Shown here one piece after another: positions 21,207 to 44,606 of a DNA stretch of 46,513 bases. The notes below the pieces were generated by a model. That model was given only the letters and a program-made list of their open reading frames with translations. It was not told the origin of the DNA and did not search any database. Each line of letters starts with the position of its first letter. Position 1 is the first letter of the stretch. This stretch comes from a virus (Duplodnaviria > Heunggongvirae > Uroviricota > Caudoviricetes): the IMG/VR virus record IMGVR_UViG_2718218361_000005, one strand, 5' to 3'. Both the position numbers and the translations under genes were made by a program.

Positions 21207-24887
<3,681 letters not shown>

Positions 24888-30034: not shown

Positions 30035-30418
30035 TTAATTAGAGTTATTAACAACGATATCCATCTCTAACCGGATATCTAATGCCATTAACATCCCTTC
30101 AATTATGCCCTCAGCCTTCTGTAACCTTTTCCCGATATAACCATCAGAGCAGCAATGCTTACCTGCCAGTGACATGAATGTCATACCGACTACATAATAA
30201 TCTACTAATAAATCGTGCAAATCGCTGTTGTTCTTTTTCAGACGGGCCATGCACCCGCAAATGATCATCGCGTCATCGTCACAACATTGCGGGCGAGATT
30301 TTACTTTTGAAGTAATTAATCCCTTAAAACCGGCGGCAATGGACGACCAGGTCACATCTTCATGATTATTAGCCGCCCACGCTCCCCAACGCTCAAGAAC
30401 CATCTGAATATCACGCAT
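30035..30418 (-). CDS. Q: Late-gene antiterminator Q (QuuD-like, 127 aa)
   Basis: ATG at 30416-30418 ([21 protein letters not shown]...); Cys-rich zinc-binding region; position upstream of the lysis genes. Confidence 0.85.
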
Positions 30419-30503
30419 CAACTTACTCCACAAAAATCAGACCAGAACGCCAATTACAAGCAAAAATCAACGAAACAGTATTAGTTGATTGTTATCTCTG
30501 ACT

Positions 30504-36562: not shown

Positions 36563-36579
36563 CATATGAGATTTTTTTG

Positions 36580-39104: not shown

Positions 39105-39644
39105 TCATATCGCCCCCAGCATGGTAGTAACCATCGCCATCAATGGACCAGCCAGATCTGGGTCCACACGAAACATCGACACAATACCTTCACTAATTTC
39201 CTTCAGTTTCTGGTGGCGTGGTGCGTTGAGAATGACAGCCTGTTTTGCCTCACTGAGTTCCTTTTCCATTTCAGCCAACCTAGCCATGAAGCTATCCTGC
39301 TCAACCAGGTAACCGCGATATTCCAGCGGTAGTACCGCCAGAATTGCCGGGGTCAGTTCACGCACGTTATTTCGGTATTTTTCAGAATCGAATTTGTTAT
39401 CGAGGAAGCGGAACAGCTTCTGGCGTGCACGGCTGACATCATCAGGGAAATCGATGGTGCCGCCGCCCTGCTCCCGATACTCATTCACAATGAGTGTGGC
39501 AACGACATCCTGATTATCTTCAGCCGACCAAGCGCGGACGGCATCACGGATTTTTTCGTGGCCTGGCACCTGTTTTGTTTGAGAACGATTTATCACCGCA
39601 GTCGGGCTAAATCCGCTAGTCTGTTGGTATGTAAGTGGTTGCAT
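39105..39644 (-). CDS. YdaT-like early regulator in the cII position (179 aa)
   Basis: SD AAGGAG; motifs NEYREQGGG and LTPAILAVLPLEYRGYL resemble remembered Rac YdaT; located between the cro-like gene and O. Confidence 0.55.
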   Translation of the reverse strand: MQPLTYQQTSGFSPTAVINRSQTKQVPGHEKIRDAVRAWSAEDNQDVVATLIVNEYREQGGGTIDFPDDVSRARQKLFRFLDNKFDSEKYRNNVRELTPAILAVLPLEYRGYLVEQDSFMARLAEMEKELSEAKQAVILNAPRHQKLKEISEGIVSMFRVDPDLAGPLMAMVTTMLGAI

Positions 39645-39713
39645 AATTGACTCCTTTAGTTTGAATTGACTGTTAAGTTGATTGCTTATTGTTAAAGAGC
39701 GTGAAATGGAAAT

Positions 39714-39944
39714 TTAAGCTGCGTTCTTTTCGGTGTGTGGAAACAACTTCGGAAGATCCGGGCGAATCTGGTATGCCTTCACTACTCCACCAGTAGCCGT
39801 AACAATGCTGCCGACATGTTCAGGGGATACCTTTGCTTTGTTGTGAAGCCACTTATAGACGGCCTGCTGTGAAACTTCGCAAGCAGCGCCCAGTTTCTTT
39901 TGTGAACCAACGATATTGATCGCTGTTTTGATAGCTGGGTTCAT
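39714..39944 (-). CDS. Cro-like HTH regulator (YdaS-like), 76 aa
   Basis: SD GGAGG; HTH segment QKKLGAACEVSQQAVYKW; divergent from the repressor gene. Confidence 0.75.
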   Translation of the reverse strand: MNPAIKTAINIVGSQKKLGAACEVSQQAVYKWLHNKAKVSPEHVGSIVTATGGVVKAYQIRPDLPKLFPHTEKNAA

Positions 39945-39976
39945 AACAACCTCCGTGGTTAATTTGAATCAAGATT

Positions 39977-40007
39977 AAAACTATGGTTGTTTTTAGTCAA
40001 CAACCAT
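39977..40007. promoter_or_regulatory. Rightward operator/promoter region (OR/pR-like) between the cro-like and repressor genes
   Basis: Perfect inverted repeat ATGGTTGTT-N7-AACAACCAT (39983..40007); candidate -35 TTGACT on the minus strand; 17-bp element aaaactatggttgtttt (39977..39993) recurs inverted at 41036..41052. Confidence 0.6.
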
Positions 40008-40048
40008 TTTCGTTTGATGGAATAAAACCTTGGTTGTACATTTGGACT

Positions 40049-40738
40049 ATGAAAACAACACTCTCAGAAAGACTTAAAGAAGCCAGATTAGCGCGAGGCC
40101 TTACACAAAAGGCGCTTGGGGATTTGGTCGGGGTTAGCCAAGCTGCTATTCAGAAAATCGAAACAGGGAAAGCTAATCAAACAACTAAAATCGTGGAGAT
40201 CGCGAACGCTTTGGGTGTGCGCGCAGAATGGTTATCTTCTGGCGTTGGAAATATGTCAGACAGTACAGTGCAACCAATACAATCAACTGTCAGCCATTCC
40301 AAATACTTCAAGATTGACGTTCTTGATATAGAAGTCAGTGCTGGGCCGGGAGTCATCAACCGTGAGTTTGTAGAAGTTCTACGCTCGGTTGAGTACTCGT
40401 TTGACGATGCTCGTCACATGTTCGATGGTAGGAAGGCGGAAAATATCCGCATCATTAACGTGCGTGGTGACAGCATGTCAGGAACGATCGAACCAGGTGA
40501 TCTGCTGTTCGTTGATATCACAGTTAAATCTTTCGACGGTGATGGTATCTATGCGTTTCTGTACGACGACACAGCCCATGTAAAGCGCCTGCAAATGATG
40601 AAGGATAAGCTGCTGGTCATCTCTGATAACAAAAGCTACTCACCGTGGGACCCGATCGAGAAAGACGAGATGAACCGGGTGTTCATCTTCGGTAAGGTTA
40701 TTGGGAGCATGCCGCAGACATATAGGAAGCATGGGTAG
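40049..40738 (+). CDS. cI: CI-type prophage repressor (N-terminal HTH, C-terminal S24 LexA-like autopeptidase), 229 aa
   Basis: HTH LTQKALGDLVGVSQAAIQKIETG; S24 motifs GDSM and VKRL; ATG at 40049 has no SD, so possibly leaderless as lambda cI from pRM; the track ORF start at 39983 lies inside the operator palindrome. Confidence 0.85.
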   Translation: MKTTLSERLKEARLARGLTQKALGDLVGVSQAAIQKIETGKANQTTKIVEIANALGVRAEWLSSGVGNMSDSTVQPIQSTVSHSKYFKIDVLDIEVSAGPGVINREFVEVLRSVEYSFDDARHMFDGRKAENIRIINVRGDSMSGTIEPGDLLFVDITVKSFDGDGIYAFLYDDTAHVKRLQMMKDKLLVISDNKSYSPWDPIEKDEMNRVFIFGKVIGSMPQTYRKHG

Positions 40739-40859
40739 TACCAATTAAAAATTATCAACTGGGCATTGTGCTCATTCAGTAAAGAACTAATTCCTATCTT
40801 TGCTCTAGGTAGTAATATTAAGCCACCGCAATAATATCTTTACCTAACGGCGTAAGAAT

Positions 40860-40886
40860 CCCGGTCACCGTGCCGGGTTTTCTTTT
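40860..40886 (+). terminator. Intrinsic terminator downstream of the repressor gene
   Basis: Hairpin cccgg-tcaccgtg-ccggg followed by ttttctttt. Confidence 0.55.
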
Positions 40887-40998
40887 GCCCTCCCCTCATC
40901 ACACACACCGTTAAAAAAACCACCATAACCTCGCTTCAGTTATCGCTATGCGATTCAAGTCACAAAATAAATCCATCCTAAATACAACCAGTTATATC

Positions 40999-41056
40999 TA
41001 AAACAACCAATAAAACAACTTTTGTTGTTGACGGTAAAACAACTATAGTTTTAAAT
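40999..41056 (+). promoter_or_regulatory. Leftward operator/promoter region (OL/pL-like) driving the gam-bet-exo operon
   Basis: Three AAAACAAC half-site-containing elements, palindrome ACAACTTTTGTTGT, candidate promoter TTGACG-N17-TTAAAT overlapping the 17-bp element shared with OR. Confidence 0.55.
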
Positions 41057-41616
41057 AAGTTCGTCGCAACAACACAACGATACGGCAACCACCTGATTCA
41101 CCGTTGCGATGACCGCTTAGATCCGCAGTTTGAATTTCAGCAGGTTTCGGGGAGTGCGAGGGGTGAAACGGACGCGTGAACGTCGGTGTGACCAGCTGAA
41201 ATCAACTCAACATTTCATACCTTAGTCGCTTCAACGAGGCGGCTTAGTTATGACAACCGGCGGCCATCCACCGCCTGAATACGCGCAGAAGTCTCTATAT
41301 GTTCAGCAGCCCAGCTTACGGGCAGGAGTTTTTATGGTTCATCAACATTACGGAACGCAGACCGTTAATCGCGGCGCGGTCATGCCAGGAATGCTGGTCA
41401 AACACAAAGATGGTACCTAGACTGCATCAGCTAATTTACGCGGACAGCTTTATCTGCATCGCGGCATCGAGCGCACTTATACCCGTGATTTGCTCGTGGA
41501 AGTTTTTCTCGACGGACGCGGTAACGGCCTGAATCACTAACCCCCCTTTCCTGTTTTCCTAATCAGCCTGGCATTTCGCGGGCGCTATTTTCACAGCCAT
41601 TTTCAGGAGTTCAGCC

Positions 41617-41913
41617 ATGAACGCTTATTACATTCAGGATCGTCTTGAGGCTCAGAGCTGGGCGCGTCACTACCAGCAGATCGCCCGTGAAGAGAAAGAG
41701 GCAGAACTGGCAGACGACATGGAAAAAGGCCTGCCCCAGCACCTGTTTGAATCGCTATGCATCGATCATTTGCAACGCCACGGGGCCAGCAAAAAAGCCA
41801 TTACCCGTGCGTTTGATGACGATGTTGAGTTTCAGGAGCGCATGGCAGAACACATCCGGTACATGGTTGAAACCATTGCTCACCATCAGGTTGATATTGA
41901 TTCAGAGGTATAA
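41617..41913 (+). CDS. gam: Gam (short 98-aa form), RecBCD inhibitor
   Basis: [21 protein letters not shown]... matches lambda GamS; the upstream in-frame extension is closed by a stop at 41560-41562. Confidence 0.9.
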
Positions 41914-41918
41914 AACGG

Positions 41919-42704
41919 ATGAGTACAGCACTCGCAACGCTGGCTGGGAAGCTGGCTGAACGTGTCGGCATGGATTCTGTCGACCCACAGGAACTGATCA
42001 CCACTCTTCGCCAGACGGCATTTAAAGGTGATGCCAGCGATGCGCAGTTCATCGCATTGTTGATCGTCGCCAACCAGTACGGCCTTAATCCGTGGACGAA
42101 AGAAATTTACGCCTTCCCTGATAAGCAGAACGGCATCGTTCCGGTGGTGGGCGTTGATGGCTGGTCCCGTATCATCAATGAAAACCAGCAGTTTGATGGC
42201 ATGGACTTTGAGCAGGACAATGAATCCTGCACATGCCGGATTTACCGCAAGGACCGTAATCATCCGATCTGCGTTACCGAGTGGATGGATGAATGCCGCC
42301 GCGAACCATTCAAAACCCGCGAAGGCAGAGAAATCACGGGGCCGTGGCAGTCGCATCCCAAACGGATGTTACGTCATAAAGCCATGATTCAGTGTGCCCG
42401 TCTGGCCTTCGGATTTGCTGGTATCTATGACAAGGATGAAGCCGAGCGCATTGTCGAAAATACCGCATACACTGCAGAACGTCAGCCGGAACGCGACATC
42501 ACTCCGGTTAACGATGAAACCATGCAGGAGATTAACACTCTGCTGATTGCCCTGGATAAAACATGGGATGACGACTTATTGCCGCTCTGTTCCCAGATAT
42601 TTCGCCGCGACATTCGCGCATCGTCAGAACTGACACAGGCCGAAGCAGTGAAAGCTCTTGGATTCCTGAAACAGAAAGCCTCTGAGCAGAAGGTGGCTGC
42701 ATGA
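41919..42704 (+). CDS. bet: Bet single-strand annealing recombinase (261 aa)
   Basis: Matches lambda Bet. Confidence 0.95.
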
Positions 42705-43381: not shown

Positions 43382-43536
43382 AGCATCCTCACGATAATAT
43401 CCGGGTAGGTGCGATCACTTTCGTCTACTCCGTTACAAAGCGAGGCTGGGTATTTCCCGGCCTTTCTGTTATCCGAAATCCGCTGAAAGCCCAGCGGCTG
43501 GCTGAGGAGATAAATAATAAACGGGAGAGTGTATGA
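43378..43536 (+). CDS. Small ORF, lambda orf60a-like (52 aa)
   Basis: Hand translation [52 protein letters not shown]; ATG overlaps the exo stop. Confidence 0.5.
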
Positions 43537-44285
43537 TTCATTTTCACGGTGGTCCAATAACTCCCGATACCTGTGCGTTGAAAGCCTGGAAAGGCAGACA
43601 CGCATTCATCAGTTTTGCTAATCCAGCTCAGATTGATCTGGCTTCCGAAGTCACCCAATCATTTGCTCTTGATAATGGTGCATTCACATTCTGGACAAAA
43701 AACAAGGCCATAGACTGGAATGAATATTACAGATTTGTTGAACGCTGGGGTAATCACCCTCGTTTCTCATTCGCGGTTATCCCGGATGTTATCGGCGGAA
43801 CCAGTGAAGAGAATGACGCCCTGATTGCGGCATGGCCTCACGGTAAATTTATTGGTGCTCCGGTGTGGCACATGAACGAACCAGATGAGCGATTTATTCG
43901 TCTGTGCCATGAGTTTCCCCGCGTCTGCATCGGCTCGATGGGGGAATACGATGCAAAACGACCGAGAGCGTGTCGGGCTAAACTACGCGATCTTATACGT
44001 CATGTTGTAGATCAGTACGGCTACCCAATCACCAAGATTCATGGGTTACGGATGTTAAATAAAGACATTTTTACTCATGTACCGCTTTCGTCTGCAGACA
44101 GCACGAACGTCGCAAGAAATATAGGCATCGACAAATCCTGGGTAGGTTCGCCATATGCTCCCGCAAGTAAAGAAACCCGTACGCAAGTTCTTGTGGAACG
44201 CATTGAATCATTCAACAGTGCCAGTTCACTTAATTACAACGCTGAACGGGACGTCTTTACCCCTCAACTGGCATTCGAAGTGTGA
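43533..44285 (+). CDS. Hypothetical 250-aa protein; motif order weakly resembles the tRNA-guanine transglycosylase (Tgt/DpdA) superfamily, unverified
   Basis: Motifs in Tgt-like order: FALDNGAF (cf. TDSGGFQ), AVIPDVIGG (cf. FDECT), IGSMGEY (cf. GGLAVGE), HGLRMLNKD (cf. MGVGKPED); no Zn-binding Cys cluster; memory-based comparison only. Confidence 0.5.
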   Translation: MIHFHGGPITPDTCALKAWKGRHAFISFANPAQIDLASEVTQSFALDNGAFTFWTKNKAIDWNEYYRFVERWGNHPRFSFAVIPDVIGGTSEENDALIAAWPHGKFIGAPVWHMNEPDERFIRLCHEFPRVCIGSMGEYDAKRPRACRAKLRDLIRHVVDQYGYPITKIHGLRMLNKDIFTHVPLSSADSTNVARNIGIDKSWVGSPYAPASKETRTQVLVERIESFNSASSLNYNAERDVFTPQLAFEV

Positions 44286-44508: not shown

Positions 44509-44529
44509 ACATGAAAAGAAAAATCATCA

Positions 44530-44554
44530 GGGAGCTACAGGCTCCTTTTTTATT
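44530..44554 (+). terminator. Putative intrinsic terminator after the 250-aa/71-aa gene pair
   Basis: Hairpin ggagc-tacag-gctcc followed by ttttttatt; short stem. Confidence 0.45.
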
Positions 44555-44606
44555 GTTCGCATTCATCCTCAAGCGTATTAACCAACAATTCAGGGATTAA
44601 TGGAAG

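Follow-up and report, generated by a model that had tools for sequence, protein, structure and literature searches.

A probable N-less early-left control region, common among Escherichia coli prophages, that joins an untranslated leader to a conserved hairpin cassette

Results

An early-left region without N is shared by a large clade of prophages

The 878-bp interval at positions 40739-41616 of a 46,513-nucleotide viral sequence (IMG/VR record IMGVR_UViG_2718218361_000005; this whole stretch is referred to as the window) is probably the section of the early-left (PL) operon nearest to its promoter, in a lambdoid prophage that belongs to a large clade lacking the N gene. The window corresponds to a complete lambda-like prophage, in which the repressor and the leftward (PL) operon are encoded on the + strand and in which xis and int end the PL operon at the right edge. 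In the proposed order, the terminator of the cI transcript would be followed by the leftward operators and promoter (OL/PL), an untranslated leader of ca. 275 nt, kil, and gam-bet-exo, with the leader being composed of a clade-specific 5′ segment (41057-41212) and a 120-nt hairpin cassette (41213-41333). The features concerned are:

40780-40855, + strand: remnant of the 3′ end of an ASCH-domain 'GevA' gene, by homology to a gene located between cI and PL in relatives
40860-40885, + strand: intrinsic terminator of the immunity (cI) transcript (CCCGGTCACCGTGCCGGG followed by TTTTCTTTT, -12.2 kcal/mol)
40990-41056, + strand: OL operators and PL promoter, with inverted-repeat matches to the OR/PR region
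41057-41212, + strand: clade-specific untranslated leader, the core of which (41097-41212) is common to prophages of at least three immunity types
41213-41333, + strand: conserved hairpin cassette of ca. 120 nt, preceding variable early-left genes in many lambdoid phages
41224-41244, + strand: hairpin A (9-bp stem, AAC loop, followed by the U-rich UUAGUUAU; -11.6 kcal/mol)
41259-41275, + strand: hairpin B (GGCGG CCAUCCA CCGCC), nearly invariant
41309-41323, + strand: small hairpin C, followed by the Shine-Dalgarno sequence AGGAG at 41324-41328
41334-41540, + strand: kil (FtsZ/septation inhibitor; phrog_294), 68 codons, here a pseudogene with a W29* amber codon
41541-41616, + strand: kil-gam spacer, with an in-frame TAA at 41560-41562 and a weak hairpin at 41566-41583
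41617-41913, + strand: gam, 98-aa form (PF06064, E 3e-65, full length)

As the initial annotation had stated, the list of open reading frames (ORFs) contained no N-sized ORF on the + strand between the leftward operators and gam. No N protein was found at the head of the PL operon either, since every + strand ORF from PL to int either fell into another PHROG or Pfam family or matched no family, and the claim that the phage encodes no N and must manage without it was upheld.

This layout was found far beyond the window. Most of the 878-bp interval could be aligned, at 89-98% identity, with 16 phage records, including 4A7 (genus Bievrevirus), Lambda_4C10, 1W, 3W, Perceval, Turner, IdasGreatGrand, and several PhiR phages that were propagated on E. 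coli C or K-12. The annotated maps of PhiR47_2, PhiR34_1, IdasGreatGrand, 4A7, and an O157:H7 prophage read cI, optional cargo, PL, kil, and gam, with no N, and the phage maps continue with gam, bet, and exo. Moreover, the 277-nt leader was present in 2231 of 5426 complete E. coli genomes (ca. 41%), nearly always at 95-99% identity and with no gene annotated inside it, and the leader locus of E. coli S21 was 100% identical to that of the window. Both cI and the leader were covered at 80% or more in 1049 genomes, without any alternative downstream module, and the remaining genomes were distinguished by cargo inserted ahead of the cI terminator rather than by an N region. Among the relatives, no N-bearing variant was found behind the same immunity region or behind this PL. 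The leader core is attached to at least three operator/repressor types, including in plaque-forming phages, and the leader homology begins with the transcript itself in 4A7 but at 41097, ca. 40 nt into the transcript, in the O157:H7 prophage.

The possibility had been raised that the early-left genes were lost by deletion in this prophage, with alignment to related prophages as a check. Such alignment revealed relatives that kept kil and no N-bearing relative behind the same immunity region, while the occurrence of the same N-less layout in 2231/5426 genomes and in isolated plaque-forming phages (4A7, PhiR34_1, PhiR47_2, IdasGreatGrand, Turner, and others), together with the presence of kil, contradicts a deletion in this prophage. 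It is true that a degenerative deletion confined to this prophage, decaying and formerly equipped with N-ral-sieB-cIII, would fit with the nonsense mutation in kil and with the ASCH gene fragment left after cI. However, more than 2200 genomes, as well as plaque-forming phages, contain the same junctions at 95-100% identity, no relative carries N behind this PL, and the remaining early-left operon is intact, so that this scenario is already contradicted and very improbable.

Judging from these sequences, N, ral, sieB, and cIII are absent from the whole clade, plaque-formers included, and were not lost by this prophage. A plausible scenario is an ancient clade-wide replacement in which the PL-proximal genes disappeared along with the terminator found before the cassette in most other phages. 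The architecture is ordinary, very common, and already annotated, with the kil pseudogene being strain-specific. As for a 'before deletion' comparison, i.e., one phage with both an annotated N and the cassette, none was found, with HK225 and mEp237 being without an annotated N. The HK225 gp40 product contains a basic patch and belongs to no known family.

kil is present and inactivated by a private point mutation

The initial annotation had listed kil among the lost genes and had described the interval upstream of gam as holding only short ORFs without good ribosome-binding sites, neither of which held. When codon 29 was read as Trp, the 41334-41540 frame matched PHROG 294 ('Kil protein for bacterial septation inhibition') with an E-value of 2.5e-37, residues 1-68 aligning to profile positions 13-80 of 83 (i.e., full length); no Pfam family was matched. 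The gene has a ribosome-binding site (AGGAG, 41324-41328) located five bases upstream of its start, and one internal TAG. The 56-aa ORF noted earlier (41250-41420) is in fact the front of kil, while the 77-aa ORF (41299-41532) is an alternative frame of kil without a family match.

Codon 29 reads TAG (41418-41420) in the window and TGG in three related phages, and the identical locus of E. coli S21 was annotated by PGAP as 'cell division inhibitor, pseudo, internal stop'. Since relatives have TGG, and since 46 of the 49 leader-bearing loci have an intact kil and only the window and S21 contain the amber codon, kil is inactivated by a private TGG-to-TAG point mutation. This mutation was likely selected, as leaky expression of the FtsZ inhibitor Kil would harm the lysogen.

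The kil-gam spacer is also common to Stx phages (97.6% identity). The long N-terminus of Gam is indeed closed by the TAA at 41560-41562, as noted before, but this stop does not serve as a sign of rearrangement, since it is also present in the plaque-forming PhiR34_1 and PhiR47_2.

OL and PL are inverted copies of the rightward operator region

The OL-like operators reported at ca. 41000..41056 proved genuine and are inverted copies of OR sequences, with 41036-41054 matching 39975-39993 (95%) and 41010-41032 matching 39996-40018. Two arrangements of promoter hexamers fit PL, i.e., TTGACG (41028-41033) and TTAAAT (41051-41056) separated by 17 nt, or TTGTTG (41022-41027) and TATAGT (41044-41049) separated by 16 nt. 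PR and PL have the same promoter/operator layout. From the hexamer spacing, the PL transcript would start at ca. 41057-41064.

Upstream of the operators, alignments to PhiR47_2, 4A7, and IdasGreatGrand start at window position 40780, within their GevA/ASCH coding sequence, and the window retains ca. 75 nt of the 3′ end of this ASCH gene. The gap between cI and its terminator (40739-40860 in the window) is a hotspot for cargo insertion, with relatives carrying GevT/GevA (ASCH), a SIR2 protein, or DUF3800 or BamE-like genes there (loci L001, L007, L008, and H145-H151).

A covarying hairpin cassette precedes the delayed-early genes

In the window, the cassette consists of CATACC (41216-41221), hairpin A, TTAGTT, an ATG (41250), hairpin B, GCGCAGAAGTCT (41283-41294), hairpin C, and a Shine-Dalgarno sequence. 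Its 26-nt core (ATGACAAYCGGCGGCCATCCACCGCC) had at least 120 exact matches in IMG/VR, and the cassette was also found in HK639 (L005:8090-8200) and HK225 (L006:3480-3640), the lambdoid contigs that carry it numbering well over 100. Throughout ca. 100 distinct contexts the order was constant, with a variable spacer between hairpin B and GCGCAGAAGTCT, and the cassette was followed by kil or by one of several unrelated genes, each with its own Shine-Dalgarno sequence. No Rfam family corresponded to the cassette, and a full-text literature search with the hairpin B sequence found no paper.

Hairpin A occurred in at least eight stem versions, in which six of the nine pairs changed on both sides while the apical UUC/GAG pairs were conserved. 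Pairing was preserved in 96.7% of cells, compared to 37-57% with slid partners, and the observed covariation score was reached by none of 500 shuffles. Since the frequent U-G pairs fit the + strand only, hairpin A is a structure of the + strand RNA. Hairpin B was exact in 107 of 113 loci retrieved by an independent downstream anchor, and both stem changes seen keep G-U pairing.

Hairpin B covers codons 4-9 of a short ORF (MTTGGHPPP...) that starts at 41250 and shares the frame of kil in this clade; because of this shared frame, some records carry longer 'Kil' annotations. MTTGGHPPP was considered as a conserved polyproline stalling peptide, and rejected as the main constraint in view of frame-changing variants. 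One variant with a 2-nt deletion and another without the ATG alter the peptide and keep hairpin B, the conserved DNA further downstream is read in different frames, and nonsynonymous changes in the GGHPPP codons are as frequent as synonymous ones.

The U-tracts of both hairpins are imperfect, with UUAGUUAU following the 9-bp stem of hairpin A and UGAAUACG following the 5-bp GC stem of hairpin B, and a consensus terminator scan flagged neither. In HK639 a U-run lies 6 nt after the stem of hairpin B, and its GenBank record labels this hairpin and tail, as well as an upstream hairpin, as terminators. Among 143 distinct contexts, the sequence upstream of the cassette was the T-run of a strong intrinsic terminator in 108, the leader of this clade in 24, and a put RNA in 4. 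The latter is a CobraSix-like put RNA situated 12-15 nt upstream of the cassette in the IMG/VR contigs L032, L035, L177, and L209, the PL-put-cassette layout of which parallels the PL-leader-cassette layout of the window. Because a strong terminator usually precedes the cassette and because of the HK639 labels, the cassette marks the boundary between PL-proximal and delayed-early genes, i.e., the position equivalent to that of the lambda terminator tL1. In the clade of the window this strong upstream terminator is missing, and the leader joins the cassette at ...TTTCATACC. The IMG/VR contig L114 (7150-7420, - strand) carries a second, degenerate cassette with an intact hairpin A, a shortened hairpin B (ACGG CUAUCCAA CCGC), and a different short ORF.

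It is possible, without our expecting it, that the cassette acts in cis as a regulatory leader and controls access to the delayed-early genes, which would be compatible with the early-left reading proposed above. Hairpins A (with its U-rich tail) and B might then attenuate or pause transcription, and a ribosome at the ATG (41250) might melt hairpin B, couple translation to transcription, and shield the next gene from Rho. Such gating is supported by the strong covariation of hairpin A with wobble pairs that fit + strand RNA only, by the near-invariance of hairpin B between flanks that vary in sequence and length, by the fixed distance of 11 nt from the conserved GAG to the ATG, and by the retention of an ATG in every examined variant sequence except one. 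It is further in line with the constant position of the cassette immediately before a gene that has a Shine-Dalgarno sequence of its own, and with the terminator that the HK639 depositors annotate here. On the other hand, the short ORF shows no conservation at the protein level, the U-tracts are imperfect, and the element could persist as a recombination linker between modules.

The clade-specific leader lacks a coding signal and a put element

The sole ORF in the leader encodes 31 aa (41130-41225; MNFSRFRGVRGVKRTRERR...), starts with TTG, and is arginine-rich. Among relatives, its frame displayed S-to-G, F-to-L, G-to-E, and V-to-M substitutions against two synonymous changes, as well as frameshifting insertions of 1 and 5 nt. 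Substitutions and indels break this only ORF, and the leader (41057-41212) is without coding signal. Although the arginine-rich stretch resembles the arginine-rich motif of N, a miniature N-like antiterminator encoded here is extremely improbable and contradicted by the data: the TTG start has no ribosome-binding site, no family is matched, changes are mostly nonsynonymous next to the frameshifting insertions, and no boxB-like partner lies near PL or PR.

The initial annotation had also put forward a cis-acting 'put-like RNA as in HK022'. A put covariance model was therefore built from six putL sequences, i.e., HK022 putL (taken, like putR, from the genome sequence via the residue numbering in PMC9378689), HK639 putL (from its GenBank annotation), and four further putL sequences from BLAST matches, and was run with filters off. 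The model scored HK022 putL at 99.7 bits and recovered the held-out and much more divergent HK022 putR at 43.2 bits (E 3e-8). In the window, it found nothing in 41057-41616, with the best match (11.8 bits, E 0.55) located at 22748 in a head gene, and the loci of 4A7 and O157 likewise yielded no match beyond chance. When putL, putR, and HK639 putL were compared with the window by BLAST and by local alignment, nothing rose above chance, and local alignment of the leader with the HK639, CobraSix, HK225, and Rac leaders revealed no significant similarity. The window is thus without a put element of the HK022 kind.

Two weaker matches were set aside. A 9-nt sequence (TGCGAGGGG) shared with HK639 was not significant, and a 29-nt similarity between the extreme 5′ end and phage S9-5 scored higher than each of 200 shuffles but was attributed to related immunity sites, because these 29 nt fall in operator-like AACAAC sequence. 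An Rfam scan of 39500-42500 with E-values up to 10 yielded chance-level matches only, an inverted-repeat search for a leader-like second element in the rightward (PR) operon matched the operators only, and nhmmer searches with the leader core against ca. 240 lambdoid loci revealed no divergent homologues. Neither a boxA with up to three mismatches in the PL leader nor a boxB-like partner hairpin near PL or PR was found.

The structure check that had been proposed for the leader gave no support, as the fold of 41055-41260 was no more stable than that of shuffled sequences (z = -0.32). A long-range helix between 41135-41144 and 41192-41201 is predicted, and the RNAalifold consensus fold of the leader differs from its single-sequence fold. 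Across 31 distinct leader sequences, RNAalifold revealed one-sided pair changes only and no compensatory ones, in a set of which the diversity is too low for a fair test.

We consider it unlikely that the leader core (41097-41212) functions as a novel RNA for processive antitermination in cis, i.e., an analogue and not a homologue of put, that would modify the polymerase just after PL and allow readthrough of hairpins A and B and of a terminator further downstream at 44529. The leader does lie directly after PL, as putL does, and put holds exactly this slot in the four IMG/VR contexts mentioned above. Moreover, the core is kept across three immunity types, varies less than third codon positions, lacks a coding signal, and occurs in phages that have no N yet have conserved terminators. 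Against this, the leader has no match to the put model and does not significantly resemble the leaders of HK639, CobraSix, HK225, or Rac, its fold is no more stable than that of shuffles, the 31 sequences (of low diversity) hold no compensatory changes, and the PR operon contains no second copy.

Terminators and a boxA element in the early operons

In the early-left reading favored here, expression of kil-gam-bet-exo would need derepression of PL only, without antitermination, because the tL1-equivalent terminator is missing and no canonical terminator lies from PL to exo. Indeed, only weak terminator-like sites were found on the + strand between 41057 and 43400. Further elements that bear on this are:

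44529-44558, + strand: canonical intrinsic terminator in the PL operon (GGGAGCUACAGGCUCC followed by UUUUUUAUUGUU, -10.2 kcal/mol)
39689-39701, - strand: exact consensus boxA (CGCTCTTTAACAA), located 12 nt beyond the stop codon of cro and ahead of a YdaT-like gene

Several observations weigh against so simple a picture. The terminator at 44529-44558 lies upstream of a DksA-like gene, xis, and int and is conserved in plaque-forming relatives, and two canonical terminators are situated in the PR operon between P and Q (36563-36535 and 35354-35330, - strand). Because terminators persist in both early operons, with the one in the PL operon being conserved in functional phages, some antitermination or bypass mechanism probably exists. 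PL transcription may, furthermore, not freely reach kil, as hairpin A with UUAGUUAU could terminate or attenuate it and as the HK639 depositors call hairpin B a terminator. Finally, the nucleotide diversity (pi) of the leader was 0.024, compared to 0.038-0.053 at neighbouring third codon positions, and this roughly halved variability suggests some constraint beyond that on a spacer. Passage of the terminators at 44529 and in the PR operon could be achieved by partial readthrough, internal promoters, Nus factors at the cro boxA, or a cis-acting RNA.

With regard to the boxA candidate, CGCTCTTTAACAA is the only exact match in the window, with ca. 0.006 matches expected by chance (a rough estimate for a 12-mer in 93 kb), and the boxA sequence GCTCTTTAACAA equals the rrn consensus. 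No boxB-like hairpin follows it. All relatives that carry this cro also carry the boxA, the 4A7 and O157-type relatives lack it, and in the phage collection it co-occurs only with the N-less leader. By analogy with rRNA operons, this boxA may recruit host Nus factors, which we regard as a lead.

Immunity genes and other early genes

The immunity region and the rightward operon contain the following genes:

40052-40738, + strand: CI-type repressor of 228 aa (PF01381 (HTH_3), 5e-13; PF00717 (Peptidase_S24), 1e-18)
39714-39944, - strand: cro, YdaS-type (PF15943, 4e-17)
39105-39644, - strand: YdaT-type gene (PF06254, 9.5e-30)
30035-30433, - strand: Q-type late antiterminator (PF06530)
rightward (PR) operon, - strand: cro, the YdaT-type gene, O, P, the nin region, and Q

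The Pfam matches bear out the earlier assignment of a CI-type S24 repressor, a YdaS-like Cro, and a YdaT-like gene. The description of this immunity as 'Rac-type' stood for the rightward genes (YdaS, YdaT) but not for the repressor, which carries an S24 self-cleavage domain, unlike RacR. In the K-12 annotation, racR is a 477-nt gene for a short DNA-binding regulator, and both repressors are set apart here by annotation and domain content rather than by direct protein alignment. The rightward genes are Rac/CP-933P-like and the repressor is lambda-CI-like.

OR contains a perfect 25-bp palindrome at 39983-40007 (ATGGTTGTT TTTAGTC AACAACCAT). Because this palindrome overlaps the ATG of the longest repressor ORF (from 39983), the true cI start is most likely at 40052. 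At the repressor locus of E. coli S21, PGAP annotates a 690-nt coding sequence.

Further down the early-left operon, a gene for a 250-aa product (43533-44285, + strand) matches PHROG 887 ('queuine tRNA-ribosyltransferase', E 2e-99) and no Pfam family, and may be a moron for 7-deazaguanine modification of DNA or tRNA.

Discussion

The region resembles the corresponding part of HK022 and HK639 in that these lambdoid phages lack an N gene and have a non-coding RNA segment directly downstream of PL, with HK639 also sharing the downstream hairpin cassette and the kil family. In addition, put occupies the slot of the leader before the cassette in four contigs, although position alone does not make the leader a member of the put family. 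In contrast to put, the leader has no sequence or structure match (CGAACGGCGCG...CGUCGG; stem II GGCGGGYUCAGGA...CGGCAAU), and the window has no second element in the PR operon. As far as sequence comparison goes, the region thus appears to work like the early-left control region of the N-less HK022 and HK639 without belonging to the put family.

Compared to lambda, the order cI - PL - ... - kil - gam - bet - exo - xis - int is retained, a boxA sits at the nutR position after cro, and a Q-type late antiterminator is present. Unlike lambda, the window has no N ORF, no boxA/boxB in the PL leader, no boxB after the boxA of the PR operon, and no cIII, ral, or sieB. It does therefore not represent the lambda N/nut system. 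The boxA after cro stands alone without an N-binding hairpin, as in rrn boxA/Nus antitermination, but is absent from the 4A7 and O157-type relatives that have the N-less leader. Antitermination complexes of the rrn type, moreover, mainly counter Rho and not intrinsic terminators such as those at 36563 and 35354.

The Rac prophage shares YdaS- and YdaT-type genes to the right of its repressor and a KilR-like division inhibitor in its leftward operon, whereas the window encodes a CI-type S24 self-cleaving repressor instead of RacR, and gam-bet-exo instead of recET. In K-12, the 5′UTR (5′ untranslated region) of the Rac kilR gene yields the small RNA KilS (PMC8175672; annotated at L243:2906-3003), which provides a precedent for a regulatory RNA upstream of kil. 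Local alignment revealed no similarity between the KilS region and the leader of the window (score of 18 vs. a shuffle mean of 18.4). Finally, as with lambda tL1 and HK639 tL, the cassette in most phages follows a strong terminator that separates PL-proximal from delayed-early genes, whereas this clade lacks the strong upstream terminator and retains only hairpins A and B, with their poor U-tracts.

A 2025 survey noted that the lambdoid phage LLS lacks N and guessed at the use of put (PMC12315714), so that N-less lambdoids with an unknown mode of early antitermination constitute a recognised and unsolved category. The present analysis bears out part of what the initial annotation observed, contradicts most of its interpretation, and corrects the idea that the window illustrates decay or an HK022-like put. 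The early-left module of the window resides in viable phages and in ca. 41% of the complete E. coli genomes, has neither N nor put, and keeps canonical terminators in both early operons, and its cassette consists of covarying RNA hairpins that no library names. We consider it rather unlikely, although worth stating, that an undescribed cis-acting RNA governs the early operons of the N-less lambdoid prophages found in ca. 40% of sequenced E. coli, be it an antiterminator in the leader core or an attenuator or coupling device in the cassette. If the leader or the cassette does prove to be an antiterminator or attenuator, it would represent a third strategy of early antitermination in the lambdoid paradigm, and it would bear on the induction of very common prophages, including those of O157:H7.

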